Shown here: positions 165 through 39,147 of the stretch, one piece after another | Layout: each line of letters opens with the position of its first letter | Position numbering within the stretch: the stretch's first letter is position 1 | NCBI GenBank assembly: GCA_040905385.1 | Contig: JBBDRP010000002.1 | Coordinates: forward strand, 745,010-784,156 | Direction of reading: 5' to 3' | DNA from: Minisyncoccota bacterium | GTDB lineage: Bacteria; Patescibacteriota; Minisyncoccia; Phycocordibacterales; SW-6-46-9 | DNA length: 39,147 nt | The notes under the pieces: generated by a model | The model's database searches: none | What the model saw: the letters and a program-made list of their open reading frames with translations, nothing else | What the model was told of the DNA's origin: nothing | Translations under genes and position numbers: made by a program

Positions 165-690
165 TTCTTTTGGCGTCTTAATAACGCTTCGAAGAAATGG
201 GGTTATCTGTGTCGCCGGAAGTTAATTTGTAATTGATTAATACCGGGCGGACAGATATGAATTAGTAATTAGGATGTTGGGTCGAAATTATTTTGACCAC
301 GTACATAATCGACCAGAGATTCATACGTAGTGCGTGAGCGACCCCTTGGGCACTCCTTCGCCAAGGCTTCGTAGTGCAAGGCACGGTCAGCGAAAGCTTT
401 TCGTGCGATGCATAATCTGCCAGGGCTTGTAGTGCGGTAATTATCCTCCAGAGGATAACCAAAGAAAAAAGTGCATGCACTTTGGTCATCCTCCAAGAGA
501 TATCTACCGAATGTTCTGATCTTCTAGCATCTGTGCGGGCTTGAGCCCTTTGACTAATTGATTAGTCGAGTGACTCTATTCGAACCTTAACGCTGGCTCA
601 CCATGATATCCGCTCTACTCGAGTCGAATATCATGGATCGCTTCAAGTCGACAGTAGAGACAGAACTCTGATTTGCGGTCATTGTTGCCG

Positions 691-786
691 ACTTGGTCCA
701 GGAAAATTACATGTAATTTTCGGACATAAATTCGCGTAACGGTACTTTAAAACTAAAAGTTTTAAAGTTGTCCGACGCTCATTCAA
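691..786 (-). repeat. Structured repeat element, full copy 1 (candidate ncRNA)
   Basis: These 96 nt on the minus strand align end to end with 33115-33213 (+). Shared blocks are TTGAATGAG, TACCGT, GAATTTATGTCCG and CCTGGACCAAGT. The intervening stems differ in sequence but remain complementary. Confidence 0.7.
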
Positions 787-1087
787 CTTTGGACTTTGAG
801 CCCTCAGCTCTTTTCTAGCAAAGAGCTGGATTTCACTCGCTTGGCTCGTTTATATTCTTTTGTGAAGGTGCGGGGTTCTTTAATGTATACAGGCAATCTA
901 CCTATAACACCGTGTATGGTACCACACGCTTGACACTTCAACTGTGGAAAACACCGCTCGCACCCGCCTTTTTGTGAGACACGAATCAAGTTCTCCGCTC
1001 GCTAGCTGCGCGAGGTCTCACAAAAAGGGGTGCTCGCTTTAAGAGACGAAGCCCGAACAAAACAGCAATATTCGCTCTAAGGAGAAT

Positions 1088-1128
1088 GCCTGTGAGAGGT
1101 AGCTGAGAAGAGGTGGGCTCGCTCTAAG
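1088..1128 (+). repeat. 41-bp perfect direct repeat, left copy
   Basis: GCCTGTGAGAGGTAGCTGAGAAGAGGTGGGCTCGCTCTAAG is identical to 2247-2287. Confidence 0.95.
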
Positions 1129-1261
1129 GTAAGTGTCTCACAAAAGGGGTGCTCACTTTAGCGTAGTGACGTATACGGTTGTGAAAGAACAGTAATCACC
1201 GAACAACAGCCTTATTTTAACAATTAATAGTATAAAGATAAAGGCCTTTCCTTACACTTCC

Positions 1262-2023
1262 CTATACCTTTGTATAGGAAGTCCAACGTCTTTTACCGTG
1301 CTTTTCGAGTTGGCCGATCTTTACGAGGGCCTTGAGGTCGCGCTGAATGGTCTTGGTCGAGTAGCCGTTAACGACATCGGTGACGTCATTGACAGTGATC
1401 TCGTCGGTCTTGTTGAAAAGATCAAGAATCTTCTGCCGGCGCTTGTCCTTGGTTGATAGCTGAGCTTTTTTAGCGCTATTACCCGCGGTATTTGCCCCAC
1501 TGCCAGCAGCGGCGTCTCTACCTAATGAAGACGAATCGCGCGGGCTAGCCTTACGCGTTGTTTCGTGCCCTGATTGAAGGGTCGGAAGATCGTTGTTAAA
1601 GTACCCACTGTCCAGGTGTGGGCCCGGAAAGGCACCAAGATCATTAACCTCGGTAATAAAGGTGTCTATTTCCTCGCGCAGAACCCGGAAGTTCATGTAC
1701 GAAATAAGCCCCCCATCGCGAGCGACGGCGAGCTGTGAAAGCAGGCGTTTTAGCAGGCCAGATAGCTCTAGAAGGGTCTCATCCGGCGTGCCATCGGCCA
1801 GCATATGAGCAGACGATACAAGCGACAGTGCCTGGCGGCGAAGTGTGCCGCGGAGGGGTTCTTCAGACGGGAAAACGCGGGTTATGGCGTAAAGTGCACT
1901 GGCCAATCGCTGGGTTTTCCCGGAGACATAGGCAACACGTGTCGTATTGTCGTTTTGAGAAATACCGCTATCTTGCGCATTGCTTTGAGTTTTGTCGTTT
2001 ATACTCTGCATTATGATTTGCAA
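1262..2023 (-). CDS. Putative regulator: N-terminal four-helix-bundle (23S rRNA IVS-protein-like) domain plus C-terminal DeoR-type HTH
   Basis: 253-aa ORF. The N-terminal half contains ITRVFPSEEPLRGTLRRQALSLVSS, resembling the FPxEE...LRRAAxS signature of four-helix-bundle/IVS proteins. The C-terminus ITVNDVTDVVNGYSTKTIQRDLKALVKIGQLEKHGKRRWTSY is a typical DeoR-like winged HTH. Confidence 0.6.
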   Translation of the reverse strand: MQIIMQSINDKTQSNAQDSGISQNDNTTRVAYVSGKTQRLASALYAITRVFPSEEPLRGTLRRQALSLVSSAHMLADGTPDETLLELSGLLKRLLSQLAVARDGGLISYMNFRVLREEIDTFITEVNDLGAFPGPHLDSGYFNNDLPTLQSGHETTRKASPRDSSSLGRDAAAGSGANTAGNSAKKAQLSTKDKRRQKILDLFNKTDEITVNDVTDVVNGYSTKTIQRDLKALVKIGQLEKHGKRRWTSYTKV

Positions 2024-2400: not shown

Positions 2401-4932
2401 ATGGCCAAAGGAAAGAAAAAGAAGTCCTCAACCGCAAAGGATAAGCAGCAGTCACTGACCCAGAAGTTACTTCTGGGTAATCAGTCATCGCCAGTCCGAT
2501 CAGCCATTGCCGGCGTACTGATCGCGGCCGCGGCCGGATTCCTGGTTCTGGCGGCCTTTGAATCCGCCGGGTTTGTTGGTGATACAGTCCGCGGTTGGTT
2601 AGCGTATGCCTTTGGGACCGGGTACTGGTTTTTTGTTGCCGGCTTGATATTCTTTGCCTACGCGCTCCTGCGACGAAGTGCCAATCTTCCGACCTTGACG
2701 TGGGTGCATACGGTATCGGCGATCATCTTGTTTTTAACGATATTAGGATTGATTGATGTGGCAGCACCGGAGGCAGGAGGTATCATAGGAGCCTTGATTG
2801 CTGGTGGAGTTATTAGTGCCTTCTCTGTTTATGCCGGGGTGATACTGCTGCAGACAGTGGCGGTGGTAAGTTTGCTAATCTTGGTGGATGAGTACGTAGA
2901 TCTGAGTCGTCAGATAAATCTACCAGCGTTGTCATCTCTCGGTCTATCGAGTACCGCAGAGGATGAAGAGGAACAAGAAACTGAAGGAGAGATGAAAGTA
3001 ACCAACACCGCCCAGACGAATCAATCCACCAGTCAATCTGCTGAATCGCGTGAAGCAACAAAAGACTCCTCATCAGACCCTGAATCATCTGACGATGATC
3101 GGGCAAGCGGGACTACGAAGGGTAAGGATGGAGCCGGCTTTAGCGTGACGAAACCAAAGAAGCATAGTGAAGCTTCTTTTACTGCCTCTCCTCCCCTGAA
3201 AGGTGACTACACACCACCGCCGGTTGAGCTGTTGTCGCGCGATACCGGTGATCCGGAGGTAGGTGATGTAAAGGCGCGAGCTAATTTAATAAAACGAACA
3301 CTGGAAAACTTTAATATTGATGTCGAGATGGACGAAGTATCCATCGGGCCAACCGTCACCCGCTATGCGTTGAAGCCGGCGGAGGGCGTGCGTCTCAACC
3401 GCATCACGAACCTGCAGAACAATCTGGAGATGGCACTGGCGGCTCACCCCGTACGAATCGAGGCTCCGATCCCTGGTAAGTCCTTGGTAGGTGTCGAGGT
3501 TCCAAACACCTCTAAAACAACTGTCGGGCTGGCGGGGCTTATGGGATCAAAGCGGTTTCAGGATGATCCGGCTCCTCTTTTGATGGGTCTCGGACAGGGA
3601 ATTTCAGGTGAGACATACTTTTCGGACCTGAACAAGATGCCGCACCTCTTGATTGGTGGTGCAACCGGCGCGGGAAAGTCGGTGACGGTACATGTGCTGA
3701 TGAACTCGCTTCTCTTCCGCAACGGGCCAGACAATCTGAAGCTGATTATGGTGGACCCAAAGCGGGTTGAGCTAACGCTTTACAATGGTATTCCCCACCT
3801 CTTAACACCCGTTATCACCTCGGCCAAGAAGGCGATTCTGGCCTTGAAGTGGGCGGCTAAGGAGATGGATCGCCGCTACGATATTCTGGAAGAGAACGGC
3901 GCACGCGATATTTCTTCTTATCATAAAACCGTTCTACCAAAGCTAAAAAAACAGCACACCGAGGGTGAGCAGAGTCCAGACACGATGCCGTACATCGTGA
4001 TCGTGATTGATGAGATGGCGGACATGATGAGCGTTTATCCAAAGGAGCTGGAGGCAGTGATTGTCCGCATTGCGCAGATGTCGCGGGCAGTGGGAATTCA
4101 CCTGATTCTGAGCACACAGCGACCAGATGTGAGTATAATTACCGGTATCATTAAGGCCAACATTCCGGCTCGGATTGCGCTGCAGGTATCCTCACAGATT
4201 GATAGTCGTACTATTCTAGACACCAAGGGCGCTGAACAGTTGCTAGGTGCCGGAGATATGCTATTTCAGACCGGGGATATGTCTAAGCCGGTACGTATTC
4301 AGTCTGCCTATATCACCGAGGGTGAGGTAAAGAAGGTGGTAAAACACCTGAAGGATCAGTACGCCGATCAGCTGCAGGATACGGTGAGTCTCAAGGGTGA
4401 CGGCGATGGTGATGGCGGTAAAACCATCTTTGATGTAGCCGCCGAGGCCGAGGAGGATGAGGAGCGAGATGACAAGTACGAAGAGGCGCTGGAGACAGTG
4501 GTAAAGGCTGGTAAGGCCTCGACCTCGCATCTACAGCGAAAACTACGAGTGGGATACAGCCGAGCGGCGCGGATTATTGATGAACTGGAGGAGAACGGCG
4601 TTATCTCGGAAAAGGACGGCACGCGAGCTCGTGATGTCTTGATCACCCATAAAGAACTGGAGGCAGCGCGAGCCGGCGAGACCATCACGCATGAGGACTC
4701 CTCTGACGACTCGTCTCACGGCGAAGGCTCTGGCGAGACAAAGGAGGATTCCCATACCGTAGAACAAGGCGGGGCAGGCGACGACGACCCCACTCCCACG
4801 TCGTCTGGCGACTCTCCTAACGGCGGGGCAGGCTCCGGCGAGGGGGCAAGCGACCCTCAATCATCTGACGATGATCGGGCAAACGAAGAAATTGATGACA
4901 AGTACTTTGAGGCGTTAGAAGAGGATGAGTAA
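2401..4932 (+). CDS. ftsK: DNA translocase FtsK/SpoIIIE
   Basis: N-terminal multi-TM region, acidic linker, and a motor with Walker A GGATGAGKS and IVIDEMADMM. The gamma winged helix reads ASTSHLQRKLRVGYSRAARIIDELEENGVIS. An unusual ~130-aa acidic tail follows the gamma domain. Confidence 0.93.
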   Translation: MAKGKKKKSSTAKDKQQSLTQKLLLGNQSSPVRSAIAGVLIAAAAGFLVLAAFESAGFVGDTVRGWLAYAFGTGYWFFVAGLIFFAYALLRRSANLPTLTWVHTVSAIILFLTILGLIDVAAPEAGGIIGALIAGGVISAFSVYAGVILLQTVAVVSLLILVDEYVDLSRQINLPALSSLGLSSTAEDEEEQETEGEMKVTNTAQTNQSTSQSAESREATKDSSSDPESSDDDRASGTTKGKDGAGFSVTKPKKHSEASFTASPPLKGDYTPPPVELLSRDTGDPEVGDVKARANLIKRTLENFNIDVEMDEVSIGPTVTRYALKPAEGVRLNRITNLQNNLEMALAAHPVRIEAPIPGKSLVGVEVPNTSKTTVGLAGLMGSKRFQDDPAPLLMGLGQGISGETYFSDLNKMPHLLIGGATGAGKSVTVHVLMNSLLFRNGPDNLKLIMVDPKRVELTLYNGIPHLLTPVITSAKKAILALKWAAKEMDRRYDILEENGARDISSYHKTVLPKLKKQHTEGEQSPDTMPYIVIVIDEMADMMSVYPKELEAVIVRIAQMSRAVGIHLILSTQRPDVSIITGIIKANIPARIALQVSSQIDSRTILDTKGAEQLLGAGDMLFQTGDMSKPVRIQSAYITEGEVKKVVKHLKDQYADQLQDTVSLKGDGDGDGGKTIFDVAAEAEEDEERDDKYEEALETVVKAGKASTSHLQRKLRVGYSRAARIIDELEENGVISEKDGTRARDVLITHKELEAARAGETITHEDSSDDSSHGEGSGETKEDSHTVEQGGAGDDDPTPTSSGDSPNGGAGSGEGASDPQSSDDDRANEEIDDKYFEALEEDE

Positions 4933-5412: not shown

Positions 5413-6679
5413 AGACGTAGAGAAGACAATAAAGAAGCTAAAGAGTCGCTTTGGTGACGGCGCGATTATGCGGCTGGGTGAACGCACCGACAAGGATGTC
5501 GAGGTTATTTCGACCGGCTCGATGGGACTTGATCAGGCGCTGGGTGTTGGCGGGCTTCCTCGTGGTCGTGTTGTCGAGATTTTTGGACCAGAAAGCTCGG
5601 GAAAAACGACGCTGGCCCTGCATGTAATTGCCGAGGCACAAAAGGTGGACGGAATTTGCGCCTTTGTAGACGCTGAGCACGCACTTGATCCCGAGTACGC
5701 TAAGAATCTAGGTGTAAAAACAGACGAGCTTTTGATTAGCCAGCCGAACACCGGTGAGGAGGCGCTGGAGATTACCGAAAGCCTCGTACGCAGTGGTGAT
5801 ATTGATGTGGTGGTGATTGACTCGGTAGCGGCGCTAACTCCGAAAGAAGAAATCGAGGGTGATATGGGTAAAAAGCACGTTGGTCACCAGGCGCGACTGA
5901 TGAGCCAGGCGATGCGTAAGCTAACCAGTGGTGTCTCCAAGAGCAAAACAATGGTGATTTTTATTAACCAGATCCGCATGAAGATTGGTGTCATGTTTGG
6001 AAACCCCGAGACAACACCGGGTGGACGAGCGCTAAAGTTCTACTCGTCGGTTCGTTTGGATATTCGACGCCGAGCACGGATTAAAAAGGATGAAGAGGTG
6101 GTCGGGTCCCGCACCAAGGTGAAGGTGGTGAAAAACAAGGTCGCCTCCCCTTTCCGTACGACAGAGTTCGATATTATGTACGGAGAAGGGATCTCTCGAG
6201 AGGGTGAGCTGATCGCACTAGGTGAGAAGTACGGTCTGATCGAGAAGGCAGGGTCATGGTACTCGCTAAGTAAGGAGCTGGATCTTGAGGATGCCGGCGA
6301 GACAATTGGTCAGGGGTATGACTCGGTGCGTACCTGGCTAAAGCAGCACAAGAAGGAGCAGGAGTTGATAAAGACAAAGATTCGCGAAGCTATGGAGGAA
6401 GAGGTAAAGGGCAAAAAAGCGGCTCGTGAAAAGGAGAACGAGCAGGTAGACGACCCTCAATCATCATCTGACGATGATGATCGGGCAAGCGAGAAGGATG
6501 TGGACAAGGGAGAAAAGAAGGAAAAGTCAGACAAGAATAGTAAGGATGAAGGTAAAGACAAGGATGAAAAGAGTGAGAAAAAAGAGAGTGATGGTAAGAA
6601 AAAAAAGAAGAAGGAATCTGGCAAGAATAATAAGAAAGGTATGAAGAAATCAGCTAAGAAGAAAGACAAAAGTAAGTAA
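5366..6679 (+). CDS. recA: Recombinase RecA with a long Lys/Glu/Asp-rich C-terminal tail
   Basis: [11 protein letters not shown], Walker [47 protein letters not shown] and NALKFY-like [15 protein letters not shown]. About 95 extra low-complexity residues at the C-terminus. Confidence 0.95.
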
Positions 6680-7661: not shown

Positions 7662-7919
7662 AACAACCTCCCAGTTGTTTTGATTGAAATTAAATAACTT
7701 ATCCATGGAATAGAGTACACTATATTTTTAATATGTCAAATATATAGCGCCTGTAGTAAAATACACCCCTCTGGTGAGCGGTGCTTTCGACCCAGCCCCT
7801 GCACGCAGGAGACTGGATTTCACTCATCTTATTCGTTCAACTTTTACCCGGTTAAACATTTTTGCAAAGCAAAAATAAAATCTATGATTTTGTTTAACTC
7901 GGGTGAACTTTCAACTAAC

Positions 7920-13056: not shown

Positions 13057-14109
13057 CTAAGAAACCTTTTTTACTTGTCGTTGTGATAAATTATTACCAT
13101 CACGATGCTTGGCTTCCTCTACATCATGTGCAAACTCAAGAAATGCTGCAGACAGTGGTACTGCTAACAAAATTCCCAGGAATCCAGCTAAACTACCACC
13201 GATAATCACGGCTAAAATAACAACAAGTGGCGGTACACCAACGACCTTGGTAACAACTAGCGGGTGCAGGAGATTGTTCTCAAACTGCTGAATGATCACA
13301 AACAGTCCTAACGTCATCAATCCAAGCGTTAGGCCACCAGAAGCAGCTGCTAAACCAATGGCCGGAACAGCCGCAACAATCGGACCAAAAATCGGAACAA
13401 TTTCGAGTAGTCCGGCCAGAATACCTAAAAGAAGCGCATTTGGGACCCCAAGAATTGTCAGTCCGATGTAGACAAGCACGCCGACGATCAGCATCAGGAT
13501 AAACTGCCCCTGAATCCACTGACCAATCTTGCGCTGCGATCGATGCCAGAGATCAGTCACGTAGTCCTCTTTTTCAAGCGGTACAACCAGACGTATAAAC
13601 TGCTCGATGCCTCCCTTTCGGGCTGACAGATAGAAAGAAATAGAGATCATCAACACAAAACTTACAATGCCACCAAAGATTGAGCTTACGATTCTGATGA
13701 CATCCTGACCACTTTCGACAGCAATATTACCAGCATTGGAAACAAGCTCGGAAACAGAGAATGTTCCGGAATCACCAAGTAAGGCACTCTCAAGCTGAAG
13801 TGAACTAATGTAATCAGGTGCGAGAGCAATTATATCCTTAAGATCTTCGATAACTGGAGGAACCAGGAAATAAATAGCCGCAAATATAGCCCCAGCCGCA
13901 GTGATATACATACCTATCACCGCCGCCAGCCGCGGAATCCGCTTTTTCTCAAAAAAGTTGATAGCCGGCTCGATTGCTGAGGCAATTACAACTGCCGCCA
14001 GCACTACCAAAAAAATATTTATCAGTTCATAGAAAAGGTAGGCCAGCGCTATGAATAAAATAGTGCGGATAATGGTATTTGAATCAATACGAATAGTTTG
14101 TGTGCTCAT
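13057..14109 (-). CDS. AI-2E family (PerM/UPF0118) transporter
   Basis: 350 aa, about 8 TM helices, with the family-typical GLLEIVPIFGPIVAAVPA segment. Confidence 0.75.
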   Translation of the reverse strand: MSTQTIRIDSNTIIRTILFIALAYLFYELINIFLVVLAAVVIASAIEPAINFFEKKRIPRLAAVIGMYITAAGAIFAAIYFLVPPVIEDLKDIIALAPDYISSLQLESALLGDSGTFSVSELVSNAGNIAVESGQDVIRIVSSIFGGIVSFVLMISISFYLSARKGGIEQFIRLVVPLEKEDYVTDLWHRSQRKIGQWIQGQFILMLIVGVLVYIGLTILGVPNALLLGILAGLLEIVPIFGPIVAAVPAIGLAAASGGLTLGLMTLGLFVIIQQFENNLLHPLVVTKVVGVPPLVVILAVIIGGSLAGFLGILLAVPLSAAFLEFAHDVEEAKHRDGNNLSQRQVKKVS

Positions 14110-14145
14110 AATTTGATAATAACATAAACTTAACAGCGCCTAAAA

Positions 14146-16062
14146 CTAGTTTTGTACCTGGCCGTCATCACTACCTTGAGTATCATCGCGACCAGTGGTT
14201 GGAACATTAATATCTCGAATCTGCAACATACTGCCGGTAAATGAGTCGGTTCCGGTAATGGAAGGGTCGGCCAGGAGTCGAACTGTTGATCCAGTCTGAC
14301 GTGAAGTTGGAGTTATCTCAACCTGAATATACACCTCTTCGGCTGGTTTGGTAAATCCAGCTCCGGCTGGGATTGTACCAATATCCCACGTTAATCGACC
14401 GGAAACATTGTTGTAATCAACATTAGCATTTAGAGGTGAAACACCATCACCCATATTTACATAGGCCGGAAGTGCCGCCTGGAAACTAGCATCCGTTATC
14501 TCGTTGGTAGTATTGGAAACAGATAGATGGATCGTATAGGTGGTGGTCTGATCAACCTGTGGTGGAATTGGACCGGTATTTTCAAGCGGACCATCATCAT
14601 GAAGCGTTCGTACTTCCATATCAGCAACAGTTGGTAGTTTTATCGATCGCTCGATATTGGTGGTTACAGTGTCAGGCAAACTACTGTCGCCTGTTGACTG
14701 TGCCTGCATACGGATCGCAATATCCACTGTTGGGTTCTCAACAATACTGGCCAATGATTCGGAGTTTCGTGTACTGAGGCTAAATCTCTGACTACCTTCA
14801 TTGTCTGGATTAATGTCTATAAGATTATCATTTGTACGTGAATTCCAGATAATCGTACTATCACCGGAACGAACAATGCCATCACGTGATGACAATGTAT
14901 CCATATCGATACCAGCACCGGAAAATGTGGCGATGATCTCTCCACCACGAACCGTTGAATCCAAATTACTCCGCCAGTTAATCTGCCCATTAATATCAAC
15001 AATATTACCAGACCGATTCTCATCGGTTTCTATATCAAGACCAACATTAATAAAGGCTTCACGAAGATTGACCACGATGTCCTGCGAAGCAAATAGCGTA
15101 CCTATCGCAGTATTATCATTGGAACGAATGGTGCCAACATCAAACCGAAAAGCCTGCTGATCGGAGGCACTCACATTAGAAAATCGTCCATCAACCGTGA
15201 TATCAATCTCCTCTCCCGGCTCGATATCGCCCAGCTGCCAGATGTAATCTCGATAATCAGGAGTTGGATCGATTTCTTCAGGTACAAATCCAAACGGATA
15301 ATCAATCACCAGAATAACATCATCCAGATTACGAGATGCATTCGAAGTAACGGTTATTTCCATCTCGAACAACTCGTTCAGGCTGGCTTCAGTAGGGCTA
15401 GAAATGTCAAGAGATATTGGTGCTTCAGAAATTTCTATCTCTCCGGTATTGGTGGCCAGAAAGATAGCATTTGAGTCCTGAACTTTATACTCGAGCTGAA
15501 CTGAAATTTCGTTTACGTCACCACGCTCTCCGAAAAGTGTCGCTTTGGTACGGATCTCAGCCTGACCATTAGCCGGAATAGTACCGATTTCTTCACGCTG
15601 CTGCCGTAAATCCTGGCCAGTATTTTCCGGCTCTCGCGTTCCGTCTGGGTAAACAATTACCAGCTCAGCTGAGTGTAACGCAACCTTGTTCTCATTTTTG
15701 ATATTAATATCAAATGTAGCCGTATCACCAGCACTGACACTACTAGGTGCATTAATCTCAATCACGACATTATCCGGAGAAATATTACTATCAGTAAAAC
15801 CAATTGTGTACGCCGCAAAAGCAAAGGCAGCGATAAAGAATATAGAAGCAAAAATCAGTAATTTATTTAAAAAAGACATCGATTCTTTCTGGGATTCTGG
15901 TTCTTGTGACGGTTCCTCATCGTGCTGCCAGCCAGTTGGTATATCATTATCGCCAGAACCACCATATGACAGCTGGTTTCTGGATGTGTTAAAGTCAGCC
16001 GGATTCTGTGAATCAAGACGGCGACGTAAACGATCTATTTTGCTTTCAGAGGACTGGCTCAT
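14146..16062 (-). CDS. Large membrane-anchored extracytoplasmic protein, unknown function
   Basis: 638 aa with a cytoplasmic N-terminus, one TM helix (LLIFASIFFIAAFAFAAYTIGF), then a long beta-rich T/N/D/I-rich region with repeated ...I.V.N.. patterns. Confidence 0.6.
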   Translation of the reverse strand: MSQSSESKIDRLRRRLDSQNPADFNTSRNQLSYGGSGDNDIPTGWQHDEEPSQEPESQKESMSFLNKLLIFASIFFIAAFAFAAYTIGFTDSNISPDNVVIEINAPSSVSAGDTATFDINIKNENKVALHSAELVIVYPDGTREPENTGQDLRQQREEIGTIPANGQAEIRTKATLFGERGDVNEISVQLEYKVQDSNAIFLATNTGEIEISEAPISLDISSPTEASLNELFEMEITVTSNASRNLDDVILVIDYPFGFVPEEIDPTPDYRDYIWQLGDIEPGEEIDITVDGRFSNVSASDQQAFRFDVGTIRSNDNTAIGTLFASQDIVVNLREAFINVGLDIETDENRSGNIVDINGQINWRSNLDSTVRGGEIIATFSGAGIDMDTLSSRDGIVRSGDSTIIWNSRTNDNLIDINPDNEGSQRFSLSTRNSESLASIVENPTVDIAIRMQAQSTGDSSLPDTVTTNIERSIKLPTVADMEVRTLHDDGPLENTGPIPPQVDQTTTYTIHLSVSNTTNEITDASFQAALPAYVNMGDGVSPLNANVDYNNVSGRLTWDIGTIPAGAGFTKPAEEVYIQVEITPTSRQTGSTVRLLADPSITGTDSFTGSMLQIRDINVPTTGRDDTQGSDDGQVQN

Positions 16063-16683: not shown

Positions 16684-19600
16684 TTACAGTATCTTCGCCG
16701 TAAAGAAGAAGCCGTGCTCGGCGACATCATCACCATCATCTACATCTGTAAAGGAGATCTCTGCTACGGTGGCGGTATCGGTGATGTCATCAGTGAAGGC
16801 TTCCAGAAGCTCTCGGCCGGTCGCGTCGGTCTCGACCCCAAGCATAATTTCGGCGGCTGGATCAAGATCGGCCTGCTTGCGCAGCCGCTGGACGGTGCGG
16901 ATAAACTCGCGTACTACCCCTTTTCTCTTCAGCTCATCGGTGAGATCGGTATCGAGTACAGCCGGCTCGTCAATTTCCGTATCAAAATGGATTTCCTCAA
17001 CATTCACCTCATCAGCAAGGATTTCCAGAAGCTCATCCTTACCCGCCAGGCGGTCATCTCGTAGCGTTAGCTTCGCCAGCGGCTGACGGACCTTCAGCTC
17101 GGCCTGGCTACGGCGATCATGAGCGTGCGACACGGCTTCCCGAAGAACCCGCATATCGGCCAGTAACGTCTCAGTACCTTCGTGGTTACCATCAGCAGTC
17201 GGCCAGTCGGTCAGATGAACGCTTTCAACACTGCCGTCGGAAACATCGCGGTATATCTCCTCAGCAAGGAACGGCATAAATGGCGCCAGGACCTTGGACA
17301 CCTCCCGTAAAACATGCAGCGTTACATTAATTGCCTGGTCGCGATCGGCACCATCCTCACCGCGAATACGATCACGAGATCGACGAACATACCACGTAGA
17401 AAGGTCATCAATAAATTTCACAATTGGTTTGGTGGCCTTATCAATCTGGTAACTTCCTAAGCCGGCCGTCACATCGCCGATAAGCTGCCTAAGACAGGCC
17501 ATTATCCAGCGGTCCAGAACATTCTCAACCTGCACCTCTTTTGTGCGGGCGGTCTCGCGCTCCTCGCTGGTGGTATACATCTCGATAAATGAAAATGTAT
17601 TGGTAAGACGGTACATCACTTTCTTGACCACCTCATCTACCTCATCAGTAGAAAGGCTTACATTCTCTCCGCGGACAAGTGGAGAGTTTACGAGGAAGAA
17701 ACGAAGAGCATCAGCGCCTTGGTTGTTGAGAATGTCGGTTACAGGCGGGTAATTTCCTTTTGATTTACTCATCTTTTGCCCATCCTCTGCCATCACCAGG
17801 CCGTTTACGATCACATTTTCATACGGAGACTTTCCAAACAGCCCAACACCAAGAACCAGTGATGAATAGAACCAGCCTCGTGTCTGATCGAGACCTTCAG
17901 AAATAAAGTTGGCCGGGTAGCCCTTGCCTTCATCTGGTGAAAAGTCATCATTTTCAAACGGATAATGCTTGGAGGCGTATGACATCGATCCGGATTCAAA
18001 CCAGCAGTCAAAGACACTATCAATTCGCTGCATTTCTTTGCCGTTCTCTTCCCAGGTGACTTCATCAATGTATGGTCGATGAAAATCAAGCTCAAAGTCT
18101 CCGTTGTGGGGATACGGCCAAAAATCCAACTTTAAAATCGAGCCAGTATCCATATCACCTATGGTTCGTCGTCGCGTTATAATTTCGTCATTTGGAATTA
18201 ATTCAGATGTCCACTGCATAATGCGCAATGGTAATCCGTGACTAATAATCAGAATATTCTTATCTTGATAACTCTCATTAATATCAAACAAGGCTGACAG
18301 CATGCGAGTCCTAATATCTGTGTATGTCTCTCCTCCTTCAACCGTTTCCGAGAATGGCTCCAGATCATCCATGACTTCATGCCACTTTTCAACTTTTTTA
18401 CCCTCAAGTATTCCGGCCTTGTTCTCAGTAAATCGCTCATCGATGATTATTTGTTCAGTAGAAAGATCAAGGCTTTCTTTAACCATTTCTGCGGTCTCTT
18501 TCGTACGAAGCATTGGTGAAACAAAAACAAAGTCGATATCAATATCCTCTAGTTTAGTAATCGCTTCGCGAACCTCCTCTTTTCCTTTATTAGTTAAGTG
18601 ATGTTCGTTGCTCGGCAGTGAGCTCATAATTCGTTTGATATTATGATCCGCCTCGCCATGACGCATAGCAAAGAATTTGTTTGAGCTTTTGGTTTTCTCT
18701 TTAAGATCAGCAAGCGAGCTAATCACCTCGACTACTTCTCCATCGGCTGACTTCCAGACCGGGAGCGGTGCACCCCAGAATCGCTCGCGGGAAATCGCCC
18801 AGTCGCGGGCACCTTCCAGCCAGTTACCAAATCGATTAGAGCCGATAGCTTTAGGGACCCAGCCAACATTCTCATTGGCAGCCACTAGGTCGTCCTTGAA
18901 GGAGCTGACCTCTACGAACCAGGAAGTAGTTGCATAGTTTAGAAGCGGCGTCTCGCAGCGCCAACAAAGCGGATACTGGTGATGAAGATTCTCTTTATTA
19001 AAGAGAAGGTCCTTATCCAACAGATACCGCAAAATTTCAATGTCGGCGGAGAGATGCTCTTCATTGCCTTCATCACGCGGCTTTACCTTCATGCCAGCAA
19101 AGTCCGTAACGTCGGCGGTAAATTCCCCCGATTCTGTTACGTGATGAACGATAGGAATACCGTGATCTTCGGCCAAGGAGAGGTCATCGGCACCAAAGGC
19201 GGGCGCAATGTGGACTAGGCCGGTTCCTTCCTCGAGCGTAACGAAGTCGGCGCCGTACACCTGCCATGCCCCGGCCTTGTTCTCGATTTCCTTGTCCTGA
19301 AAGTAGCTAAATGGCGATTGATATATTTTTCCAATAAGTTTTTCTCCAGAGAAATTTTCGGAGTCTATATCATCTTGCATGCTTAAGAATAAAAGCTTAT
19401 GAAGTTTTCCTTCATTTTTTTGAGCCGCTTCTTTAGAAAAAATATAACCACCTGATTCAAAATCTACATCTAAATCATATTTCTTAGGATCGAAATTTTC
19501 AGGAATCACAACTTTTACATACTCTAATTCTGGATTCACCGCTACCGCCATGTTGCCTGGTAGCGTCCATGGTGTCGTGGTCCAGATCAAGAGACTGGTG

Positions 19601-20292
19601 TCCGGCGCATCAGCCAGCGGTAGCTTTACCGTCACGGCAATGTCCTTCTGTTCGACGTAGCCTTGGTTAACCTCAAAATTCGATAGTGGTGTCTCACAGC
19701 GCGGACAGACATGCATCGACTTGAAGCCCTCATAAACGAGATCTTTTTTGTCTAACTCACTAAAAGCCCACCAGATGCTCTCGGTGTAGCTGGAATCCAT
19801 GGTGCGGTAGTCATTGTCCATATCCACCCAGCGACCAGTACGGGGAATAATCCGCTTCCAGTCTTCTGCATACTGCAGTACAAAATCCTTGGCGACCTCA
19901 TTAAACTTTTCAATTCCGTACTCAGAAATATCTTTTTTCGTCTCTAACCCCAGATGATCCTCAACCTGATTTTCCAGTGGAAGGCCATGTGTATCCCAGC
20001 CCCACTGACGCTCGACGTGGTAGCCCTGCATGGTCTTGAAGCGAGGAATGACATCCTTGATGGTACCGGGAAGAATGTGTCCGTAATGCGGCAGTCCAGT
20101 GGCAAATGGCGGACCATCATAGAAGACAAACTCACCCTTTGGGGATTCTTTGGCAAGCGTCTTCTCGAAGATATTATTATCGCGCCAGAATTCTAAGGTT
20201 ACTTCCTCACGCTTAGCAATATCTGACTTCTTCCCTTGCCCTTCCGTAGCTTTAGCGGAGGAGGGTGATTTCTCCTGGTTTTGGTCACTCAT
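16684..20292 (-). CDS. ileS: Isoleucyl-tRNA synthetase (type 2-like) with an internal histidine-phosphatase domain insertion
   Basis: PPFATGLPHYGH, TTTPWTLPGN, RDWAISRERFWGAPLPVW, HRPYIDEV, WFESGSMSYA and KMSKSKGN. Residues ~537-730 form a foreign RHGE...SHG domain. Confidence 0.95.
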   Translation of the reverse strand: MSDQNQEKSPSSAKATEGQGKKSDIAKREEVTLEFWRDNNIFEKTLAKESPKGEFVFYDGPPFATGLPHYGHILPGTIKDVIPRFKTMQGYHVERQWGWDTHGLPLENQVEDHLGLETKKDISEYGIEKFNEVAKDFVLQYAEDWKRIIPRTGRWVDMDNDYRTMDSSYTESIWWAFSELDKKDLVYEGFKSMHVCPRCETPLSNFEVNQGYVEQKDIAVTVKLPLADAPDTSLLIWTTTPWTLPGNMAVAVNPELEYVKVVIPENFDPKKYDLDVDFESGGYIFSKEAAQKNEGKLHKLLFLSMQDDIDSENFSGEKLIGKIYQSPFSYFQDKEIENKAGAWQVYGADFVTLEEGTGLVHIAPAFGADDLSLAEDHGIPIVHHVTESGEFTADVTDFAGMKVKPRDEGNEEHLSADIEILRYLLDKDLLFNKENLHHQYPLCWRCETPLLNYATTSWFVEVSSFKDDLVAANENVGWVPKAIGSNRFGNWLEGARDWAISRERFWGAPLPVWKSADGEVVEVISSLADLKEKTKSSNKFFAMRHGEADHNIKRIMSSLPSNEHHLTNKGKEEVREAITKLEDIDIDFVFVSPMLRTKETAEMVKESLDLSTEQIIIDERFTENKAGILEGKKVEKWHEVMDDLEPFSETVEGGETYTDIRTRMLSALFDINESYQDKNILIISHGLPLRIMQWTSELIPNDEIITRRRTIGDMDTGSILKLDFWPYPHNGDFELDFHRPYIDEVTWEENGKEMQRIDSVFDCWFESGSMSYASKHYPFENDDFSPDEGKGYPANFISEGLDQTRGWFYSSLVLGVGLFGKSPYENVIVNGLVMAEDGQKMSKSKGNYPPVTDILNNQGADALRFFLVNSPLVRGENVSLSTDEVDEVVKKVMYRLTNTFSFIEMYTTSEERETARTKEVQVENVLDRWIMACLRQLIGDVTAGLGSYQIDKATKPIVKFIDDLSTWYVRRSRDRIRGEDGADRDQAINVTLHVLREVSKVLAPFMPFLAEEIYRDVSDGSVESVHLTDWPTADGNHEGTETLLADMRVLREAVSHAHDRRSQAELKVRQPLAKLTLRDDRLAGKDELLEILADEVNVEEIHFDTEIDEPAVLDTDLTDELKRKGVVREFIRTVQRLRKQADLDPAAEIMLGVETDATGRELLEAFTDDITDTATVAEISFTDVDDGDDVAEHGFFFTAKIL

Positions 20293-32940: not shown

Positions 32941-32974
32941 TCTTTATAGCTTAGCAAACAGACCAACATTTTAC

Positions 32975-33016
32975 AATTAATGTCCGGGGATTGAATGCGA
33001 TTCTCCTGGACCAAGT
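32975..33016 (+). repeat. Structured repeat element, partial copy (3' half)
   Basis: AATTAATGTCCG, then a hairpin (GGGAttGAAT-gcg-ATTCTCCT), then TGGACCAAGT. Same block order as the 3' half of 33115-33213 and 691-786, with a third, different stem sequence. Confidence 0.55.
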
Positions 33017-33114
33017 GCGCATGTATAAAGCCTATCGCCACGTCTGACGTGGTGATAGGCGGCTTTCTGTGTCTATATTTCTTATCTATCGAAAAACCAC
33101 TTCTCGCCTTCGAC

Positions 33115-33213
33115 TTGAATGAGTACCGGATAACTTTTACGGGCTTTGCTCGTAAAAGTACCGTCGTGTGAATTTATGTCCGAATTTTGCATGTCAAAAT
33201 TCCTGGACCAAGT
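33115..33213 (+). repeat. Structured repeat element, full copy 2 (candidate ncRNA)
   Basis: 99 nt collinear with the minus strand of 691-786. Conserved single-stranded blocks with compensatory stem changes. Confidence 0.7.
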
Positions 33214-33486
33214 TGCTACTAGAGTTTCGTACTGGCACTTTCCGCCATAGATAGACCAATAACAAAAATGGCCGTTCATTTTCCCGAAGCTAACCCCGAG
33301 AGTACTTCCTTGTCAGAAAGCTTACCTACAGCACAAGCACCTTTGGAGACAAGACTGGTGCCCTGGAGGACAGGGTGCCAGTCGACTTACTGATGTATAA
33401 TCTCTTATCTATCGAAACATTAATTAATCCAACGACTCAAGTCGGCACGGATATTGGTGAATTAAAATACTTTGTAGATTCTTTTT

Positions 33487-37937: not shown

Positions 37938-39147
<1,210 letters not shown>

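Follow-up and report, generated by a model that had tools for sequence, protein, structure and literature searches.

REP/BIME elements gather after the 3′ ends of bacterial genes, are often co-transcribed and can alter mRNA stability (PMC3184786), and the BOX elements of Streptococcus pneumoniae (boxA-boxB-boxC) and the ERIC elements are dispersed in intergenic spacers and transcribed with neighboring genes (PMC3184786). We describe a comparable element from a 39,147-nt stretch (hereafter the window) of a Patescibacteria (Candidatus Paceibacterota) chromosome, the nearest named SecD and RecG relatives of which are encoded in Paceibacterota metagenome-assembled genomes (MAGs). The window contains two full units (copy 1, 691–786, minus strand; copy 2, 33115–33213, plus strand) and one unit reduced to its 3′ module (copy 3, 32975–33016, plus strand); a previous sequence-only reading of this DNA had given these coordinates and strands, which were verified from the sequence. 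The family is new and absent from Rfam, and it is new only within a broad known category. Our preferred interpretation, to which we give about an even chance, is that its members are mosaic, modular, structured and probably transcribed repeats dispersed among intergenic spacers.

Like REP/BIME elements, the Paceibacterota element is intergenic and multi-copy, forms stem-loops and mosaics of modules, lies after gene 3′ ends, and lacks terminal inverted repeats and target duplications. A REP, however, is a single G+C-rich palindrome of ~20–40 nt that has a conserved stem and flanks a RAYT gene, whereas this element is ~100 nt long and has two domains, fixed internal loops and hypervariable stems. 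With BOX and ERIC it shares modularity, the existence of units that miss a module, a stable predicted RNA structure and occurrence in either orientation, but it shows no sequence similarity to either. Similarity among BOX copies extends over their entire length, whereas in the present element invariant blocks alternate with stems that have diverged fully and are compensated; elements of the ERIC type carry inverted repeats at their termini, together with target duplications and a flanking TA, whereas terminal inverted repeats and target duplications are both missing here. By analogy, the behavior of the element appears closer to that of REP/BIME, BOX or ERIC than to that of a gene-specific riboswitch or a single-copy small RNA (sRNA).

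Copies 1 and 2 are 83% identical over 119 aligned columns including flanks, with sharp ends at TTGAATGA and CAAGT. The 11-mer CTGGACCAAGT occurs exactly three times in the window (its match count at ≤1 mismatch was reached by 0/100 shuffles) and the 13-mer GAATTTATGTCCG exactly twice. Each folded alone, the two full copies adopt the same architecture, with minimum free energies of −29.3 kcal/mol (copy 1; z = −5.4 against dinucleotide shuffles) and −30.4 kcal/mol (copy 2; z = −3.6), and they score 99 bits (copy 1) and 101.5 and 98.6 bits (copy 2) with covariance models. The 5′ rod domain comprises, in order, an outer helix (P0), a 2 × 2 loop with GA opposite GA that may be read as tandem sheared G·A pairs (G·A/A·G), the 4-bp helix P1, a UY bulge, P1b (CGG/CCG), an AYAA/UA internal loop, and hairpin 1, of 9–12 bp. 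A fixed linker joins this domain to a second hairpin, in which a fixed base (GUCC-G...C-CU-GGAC) lies under a variable top, and the unit closes with a fixed CRAGU tail (CAAGU in the window copies); full units measure ~95–107 nt. In copy 1 (minus strand), the rod (727–786) is formed of P0 UGAAU/AUUUA, the tandem GA/GA, P1 GCGU/ACGC, P1b CGG/CCG with a UU bulge, the loop ACAA/UA and hairpin 1, followed by hairpin 2 (696–725; GUCC-G-AAAAUUA ... UAAUUUU-C-CU-GGAC) and the tail CAAGU (691–695). The corresponding parts of copy 2 (plus strand) are the rod (33115–33176), hairpin 2 (33178–33208) and the tail CAAGU (33209–33213), and copy 3 retains AAUUAAUGUCCG, hairpin 2 (32982–33011) and CAAGU (29–31 bits, E ~1e-4, covariance model).

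The three helices listed in the sequence-only reading are all real, and the compensatory changes that it reported between copies 1 and 2 were confirmed: P1 changes from GCGU/ACGC to GUAC/GUGU, hairpin 1 from CUUUAAAACU/AGUUUUAAAG to CUUUUACGGGC/GCUCGUAAAAG, and hairpin 2 from A-U to U-A twice and from A-U to G-C once. It overlooked P0 (UGAAU/AUUUA), which emerges from folding of both copies, and the base helix GUCC/GGAC with its CU bulge, which hairpin 2 gains on folding. It also doubled one G in the copy 1 string, written as TTGAATGAG-GCGTCGG for what is actually TTGAATGA-GCGTCGG, a cosmetic slip in a description that is otherwise correct.

A pattern of three 5′-domain blocks (TTGAATGA, GTACCG and GAATTTATG) matched exactly three times in 185,579 species genomes, every time in a single MAG, Candidatus Paceibacterota LejiaC_47_60 (JBBDUH01), at loci designated L134, L135, and L136; a strict 3′-module pattern had no match in the same collection. 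When loci surrounding homologues of window genes were searched with two covariance models (R1 and R2), the family came to 10 members scoring 29–101 bits: the three in the window and seven elsewhere, the latter spread over the LejiaC MAG and contigs from two or more other related lineages. The LejiaC members are a 5′-domain-only copy between recJ and an RNase H gene, antisense to its neighbors (L134), a full unit at the end of a UvrD-like gene (L135a) with a diverged unit in tandem (L135b), and a copy at the recG stop codon (L136); a fragment also occurs in L135 (~1973–1995). The others are a diverged unit 38 nt upstream of a 23S rRNA gene (L008), a 5′-domain copy directly after the rpsR terminator (L141–L143), and another copy at a recG stop codon (L165).

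Searches of control sequences returned nothing comparable. In 613 kb of unrelated metagenome DNA, in which each contig carried ATGTCCG...CTGGACCAAGT, the best score was 18.5 bits (E = 0.43), and 163 kb of viral contigs yielded no covariance-model match, the one match to the 3′-module pattern and the 16 matches to a loose 5′-domain pattern in viral contigs having all failed the model. Among the 120 metagenome matches listed for the pattern ATGTCCG-N15-24-CTGGACCAAGT, all were due to chance and none had a hairpin or an AATTWATG prefix, and BLAST against phages and plasmids gave only chance matches of 20–30 nt. The family has been found in a narrow clade of Paceibacterota (candidate phyla radiation, CPR/Patescibacteria), and our literature searches turned up no account of a comparable element in CPR bacteria.

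The structure is established. In a 10-member, model-based alignment, 94.8% of 309 pair cells hold standard pairs and 28 of the 36 pairs have changed on both sides; 0/500 shuffles reached any of five pairing measures, and sliding the 3′ partners by 1–3 columns as a control reduced pairing to 28–46%. Because this alignment was fitted to the model, the 5′ domain was redone with plain MAFFT and RNAalifold, which, independently of the model, returned the same 22 pairs, 14 of them with compensatory double changes; for the 3′ module this approach recovered only the base helix, with the length-variable hairpin 2 misaligned. P1 has eight different sequences in the nine members with a 5′ domain (GCGU, GUAC, GCAC, GGGC twice, AUGC, GUGU, GCGC and CCAC), nearly all of them paired, while P1b occurs as CGG/CCG, UGG/CCA, and UCG/CGA, and P0 as UGAAU/AUUUA, UAAAU/AUUUA, and UGCGU/ACGUG. 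Each member folded alone also adopts the common architecture, with a decayed hairpin 2 in L136. The structure is thus regarded as real since the pairing statistics exceed those of shuffled and slid controls, the 5′ domain is recovered independently, and the members fold individually. An alternative helix (P0′) between the mid block and the 3′ block, with 4/5 pairs possible in full copies, was rejected, as its pairs are lost exactly where the mid block varies.

A lack of covariation in a wider alignment had been set beforehand as an outcome that would refute the sequence-only reading; strong covariation was found, and the proposed alternation of conserved unpaired blocks with covarying helices was upheld. 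Across members, the unpaired and junction blocks, ~50 nt in total, hardly vary. What is conserved is a fold on one strand together with this unpaired and junction sequence, the stems being free to change as long as they remain paired.

The sequence-only reading described the element without its behavior as a dispersed, modular repeat, and so missed its presence or absence at orthologous sites as well as its single-module, tandem and mixed copies. Copy 3 consists of the 3′ module only and L134 and L141 of the 5′ domain only, whereas L135a and L135b form a tandem; units are arranged head to tail, the next one beginning directly after the 3′ block. Two further modules share the design of the main unit, in that fixed flanks surround a variable, compensated hairpin. 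Module T (33030–33114, plus strand) lies directly upstream of copy 2 and contains a 14-bp variable hairpin (33030–33060), GGCTTTC, a TCTTATCT box (33080–33087), and CGAC. With a different hairpin sequence it also precedes the L134 copy in the LejiaC MAG; the upstream module common to copy 2 and L134 has a variable hairpin, GGCTTYC, TTCTTATCT, and CGAC, and the homology between them reaches ~85 nt upstream of TTGAAT, for which reason TTGAAT is not simply flanking target DNA. A second module T (33353–33450, plus strand; hairpin 33353–33383, TCTTATCT at 33403–33410, CGAC) is followed by a remnant of ~15 nt that resembles the start of the 5′ domain. Upstream of secD, a 546-nt insert is a BIME-like mosaic composed of a 3′ module, module T plus a full unit, and module T plus the remnant. 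Module A (787–838, minus strand; GAGTGAAATCCAG, variable hairpin 805–828, CTGAGGGCUCAAAG) abuts the 5′ end of copy 1, and a second module A (7775–7825, minus strand; GAGTGAAATCCAG at 7813–7825, hairpin 7790–7818, CUGGGUCGAAAG) with a different stem occupies the spacer that follows rpsR; this module is marked by two exact 13-mers in the window. The module T region at copy 2 has terminator-like and promoter-like consensus matches (the latter GTGATA-N16-TATATT); module T was rejected as a portable promoter, the promoter-like match being present in the window only, with none in L134.

At all seven loci a gene end lies upstream, and no locus is between divergent genes; at 5/7 the element and the upstream gene share a strand. 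Its turnover between relatives is apparent at several of these loci. Copies 2 and 3 are in the 546-nt spacer between a sugar-transferase gene and secD, antisense to both; in SecD relatives (79–91% identical) the spacer before the secD promoter-like site is ~56 nt, and in one relative (L002) an additional gene for a 643-aa protein occupies that position. Copy 3 abuts a conserved SecD promoter-like sequence (TTGTAA-N17-TAAGCT) on the other strand. As a separate observation, the promoter-like form TTGTAA-N17-TAnnnT is conserved upstream of secD throughout the relatives (window 32941–32975; L003 4385–4410; L007 and L008) and serves as a working promoter consensus for the clade. Copy 1 is in an ORF-poor spacer of 1.1 kb, with a DeoR-like gene upstream and a secreted-protein gene downstream, all on one strand. 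The spacer downstream of the DeoR-like gene in relatives aligns on both sides of copy 1, but lacks copy 1, and the alignment includes a 115-nt block that is ~98% identical to relatives. This block (window 430–545, minus strand, also 270–350 and 151–215; L141 11270–11385; strong hairpin at 444–500), located upstream of a gene for a secreted protein of ~686 aa, is so conserved even though the flanking DeoR-like protein is 72% identical; it has no Rfam match and is, apart from the element, a candidate conserved leader or non-coding RNA (ncRNA). After rpsR, where L141 has an element copy, the window has a different module. Over 71 nt, the 5′ domain of copy 2 matches that of L134 at 91.5% identity, in unrelated contexts, while the RecG proteins of the window and LejiaC genomes are only 74% identical.

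In both L136 and L165 the 5′ block contains the recG stop codon (TTT GAA TGA or TAA), and in L135 it contains that of the UvrD-like gene; in all relatives, ...AHFE* is the native RecG C-terminus. In a relative with a RecG 65% identical, recG is followed by TTTGAGTAA and no element. Hairpin 1 of L165 is that of the LejiaC copy linked to the UvrD-like gene and not that of the LejiaC recG copy, which points to gene conversion or re-insertion at the recG site. Beside the recG copy of L136 and a tRNA gene, an ORF (746–1414, plus strand) encodes a 222-aa protein with an N-terminal helix-turn-helix domain (HTH_23/HTH_28), in which the string ‘FFLYWGEGAK’ may, by eye only, be LAGLIDADG-like.

The sequence-only reading had taken the restriction of G·U pairs to one strand as a sign of RNA. 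Copy 2 indeed has four G·U pairs on the strand given here and none on the opposite one, and across copies 1–3, L134, L135a and L141, in which this strand is predicted to fold more stably, there are 10 G·U pairs compared with 0 on the opposite strand. L136 and L008, however, fold better on the opposite strand, and for L135b the strands are about equal. In single-stranded DNA, too, G·T wobbles and sheared G·A pairs form. The folding thus supports the strand without proving it, and the status of the element as an RNA gene is not established, because two members fold better on the other strand and wobble and G·A pairs form in single-stranded DNA. A scan for promoters and terminators found none that is consistent among copies and none at all at L134 or copy 1, and orientation relative to GC skew is mixed (4/6).

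The proposal that the element is no known riboswitch, ribozyme or housekeeping RNA was borne out. At gathering thresholds, Rfam 15 identified only rRNAs in the window and had no match at any copy, including those in other genomes; at E ≤ 10 or E ≤ 1, its 4227 models returned only chance snoRNA and miRNA matches of 17–22 bits at the copies. The UGAAUGA...GAA sequence resembles a hammerhead ribozyme, but there is no Rfam hammerhead match, and that reading was rejected because UGAAUGA is helical (P0) and covaries, with compensatory variants and with variable G and A positions. No U tract follows either hairpin of the unit, and the terminator scan reported no intrinsic terminator at the copies. 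That the element is not the 5′ leader of an obvious gene also held in the wider set, in which the gene context differs at every locus; as a riboswitch or 5′ leader it was rejected, since the downstream genes are all different (a secreted-protein gene, ksgA, a convergent tRNA gene, the 23S rRNA gene, and a 148-aa ORF) and three copies are antisense. Other candidates that we rejected include a sigma-54 promoter in CTGGACC... (GG-to-GC spacing wrong and inconsistent), a small ORF from the AUG of GAAUUUAUG (ORFs of 4–24 codons, no conserved peptide) or from the AUGA at the 5′ block (nothing conserved), and a kink-turn or box C/D motif (no 3-nt bulge beside the tandem G·A).

With regard to mobile elements, the sequence-only reading had raised the alternative of an insertion sequence (IS) or MITE (miniature inverted-repeat transposable element) end. 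Some MITE-like traits are present, in that the element is short (42–107 nt), has no conserved ORF, has ten members and differs in presence or absence at three orthologous loci. In seven copies, however, the first 15 nt agree with the reverse complement of the last 15 nt at only 0–3 positions, and the longest exact flanking direct repeat is 0–1 nt; without inverted repeats and target duplications, the element lacks the defining traits of a MITE. No Pfam match to transposase, reverse transcriptase, integrase or Nop-domain families was detected among the 25 window ORFs scanned. At their start, all full copies have TTGAAT, TTAAAT or TTGCGT, variants that covary with the mid block, which bears on the question of an IS200/IS605-type target; no clean empty site was obtained. 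Elements derived from IS200/IS605 and REPINs resemble the present element in their sub-terminal hairpins, lack of inverted repeats and target duplications, strand-specific folding and head-to-tail arrangement. They differ in that the element hairpins are unlike those beside the clade’s Y1 transposase, no fixed tetra- or pentanucleotide target is apparent, and homology runs past the putative left end in the copy 2/L134 subfamily.

Integron attC sites have short conserved boxes and variable, always-complementary stems and function as folded single strands, but each is one long bulged hairpin in a cassette array beside intI, whereas the element has two domains and neither a cassette array nor a nearby integrase; attC boxes (RYYYAAC/GTTRRRY) are absent from the copies, and no integrase was found in the window. 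Orphan multi-copy Rfam motifs (e.g., STAXI-type) are small and supported by covariation, some of them near ssb or recombination genes, and are possibly RNA or single-stranded DNA; none of the 4227 models, however, matches any copy even at permissive E-values. TIGR-Tas systems of CPR bacteria and phages consist of long arrays of units with two 8–12 nt spacers and box C/D, beside a Nop-domain Tas gene (PMC12045711). The window has no such array, the variable parts of the element are self-complementary stems rather than spacers, and no Nop-domain protein is encoded among the 25 ORFs.

The near-invariance of ~50 nt while stems are fully replaced implies a reader that is specific for sequence, and lineages of units that persist for long. 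A factor would accordingly read the fixed blocks as presented by the fold, and units would spread to further intergenic sites by copying and disappear from them again within short evolutionary times, mobility being the putative cause of the turnover. They would accumulate after gene ends, alone, in tandem, as single modules, or mixed with similarly designed modules. Because the folded strand is that of the upstream gene at most loci, the element would probably be made as RNA within 3′ untranslated region or operon-spacer transcripts, where its role, if it has any, may be that of a stable 3′ structure or of a processing or binding site, with a putative effect on its neighbors. Several observations weigh against this interpretation. 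No mobilizing enzyme is linked to the element, and no clean empty site defines insertion boundaries. The only transposase seen in the clade, Y1_Tnp in L141/L142, has a different flanking palindrome. Transcription is doubtful at the two loci that are antisense to their neighbors (copies 2/3 and L134) and in L141, where the copy has an intrinsic terminator on one side and a promoter-like site on the other. The recG 3′ site is common to two lineages with RecG 70% identical, which may mean in-place function, and stem turnover with ~50 nt conserved is more extreme than in a typical MITE or REP and suggests functional RNA paralogues. The sample comprises ~10 members from ~4 lineages, and of the source contig, which measures 784,156 bp, the 39-kb window only is covered.

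The resemblance to functional RNA paralogues is at the center of one rival explanation, that the element is a bona fide ncRNA gene family of paralogous sRNAs or protein-binding RNAs, in which the fixed blocks and loops (tandem G·A, AGUA/GAYAA) would bind a conserved partner, the stems would be mere scaffolding, and copies would be retained because each is functional. Conserved unpaired blocks with compensated stems are the classic signature of functional RNA, and the one-stranded G·U pairs of six members, the recG 3′ copy kept in two lineages, and the possibility of independent transcription at both antisense loci, which carry the upstream module T (promoter-like in the window), are in keeping with it. 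We nevertheless consider this fairly unlikely, given the lack of a consistent promoter or terminator (with none at L134 or copy 1), the truncated single-domain copies and fragments, the variable presence among close relatives at three loci, the decayed hairpin 2 in L136, and the position of the L141 copy between a terminator and a promoter-like site. More doubtful still is a cis-acting element at the 3′ ends of DNA-metabolism genes, ancestrally located at recG, which would provide a recoding, termination or stability signal at the stop codon, other copies being secondary. The stop codons of recG (L136, L165) and of the UvrD-like gene (L135) do fall within the 5′ block, after a RecG C-terminus that is native in all relatives, and 4/7 loci flank UvrD, RecG, RecJ/RNase H or the ssb operon. 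However, that gene-class enrichment is post hoc for seven loci, the window loci flank unrelated genes (SecD/sugar transferase; DeoR-like/secreted-protein gene), three copies are antisense to neighbors, and the relative with a 65% identical RecG has no element after recG; this explanation therefore appears very unlikely.

Alternatively, the element could be a non-autonomous single-stranded DNA element cut in trans by a Y1/HUH-type transposase, in the manner of REP/RAYT or IS200/IS605, with P0 or the terminal blocks serving for cleavage or guidance, an explanation that we regard as improbable. It would account for the lack of terminal inverted repeats and target duplications, for a strand-specific fold that tolerates wobble pairs, and for head-to-tail units that start right after a 3′ block. 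That block (CAAGU, CGAGU or GGAAU) also resembles the 5′ block UGAAU, which it replaces as the P0 strand in L135b, and a Y1_Tnp gene (PF01797) with flanking REP-like palindromes does exist in the clade. The palindrome CTGTGCAACAC-TAA-GTGTTGCACAG that flanks Y1_Tnp in L141/L142 is, however, unrelated to the element hairpins and absent from the 39-kb window, and no model match lies nearby, so that no element copy adjoins the gene; the REP/RAYT comparison fails because a different palindrome borders the clade’s Y1 transposase gene. REPs conserve their stem sequence, whereas the stems here are hypervariable, the copy 2/L134 homology extends ~85 nt upstream of TTGAAT, and orientation relative to GC skew is mixed. 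As an observation in its own right, the Y1_Tnp loci (L141 13856–14580, with the gene at 13917–14552; L142 13767–14500), with this palindrome on both sides of the gene, look like a REP/RAYT-like system in a CPR clade, and the same palindrome occurs twice in the LejiaC locus L134 (1627–1660 and 7946–7966). It is likewise unlikely, yet conceivable, that the element represents a new class of structured nucleic acid, either a CPR-specific protein-binding or catalytic RNA, for which the invariant tandem G·A and AGUA/GAYAA loops may be the active or binding surface, or a substrate of site-specific copying that homes to TTGAAT-like sequences. In the copying version, the recG stop codon may be one such target, and the 3′ block of a unit already in place another, the latter giving rise to tandems, and P0 may be a programmable match between target and internal guide.

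Apart from the element, the window encodes SecD/SecF, FtsK, RecA, RodA, aminoacyl-tRNA synthetases, thymidylate-cycle genes, and 5S and partial 23S rRNA. The 23S rRNA gene (37939–39147, minus strand) has a 317-nt insertion (~38225–38541) relative to the bacterial large-subunit model, with no Rfam intron at gathering thresholds. The isoleucyl-tRNA synthetase ORF (16684–20292, minus strand, 1202 aa) has a His_Phos_1 histidine-phosphatase domain inserted at residues 542–701. A separate repeat family based on GTCTCACAAAAAGGGGTGCTCGCTTTA, which includes a long inverted repeat, occurs in the window (963–1160 and 2247–2287, with an exact 41-mer at 1088–1128 and 2247–2287), with a 77% match in the NusG-L11 spacer of relatives (L008 13274–13357). 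A 34-nt direct repeat, GACCCTSAATCATCTGACGATGATCGGGCAARCG, occurs at 3076–3109, 4852–4885, and 6458–6491, inside FtsK and near the 3′ ends of the FtsK/RecA ORFs.

CPR/Patescibacteria genomes are smaller than 1 Mb and have very short spacers, and to our knowledge few non-coding elements have been described in them. The clade examined here tolerates clusters of structured modules hundreds of bases long, each of which keeps its fold, and the pattern of variation is stronger than in classical REP or MITE families. The family is ready as a candidate for an Rfam-style motif, and its covariance model is usable on CPR genomes. Should the reader of the fixed blocks be a host factor, it would constitute a new RNA-protein system in a phylum that has been little studied; should it be a transposition enzyme, the element would represent a new type of non-autonomous element that lacks inverted repeats and target duplications.

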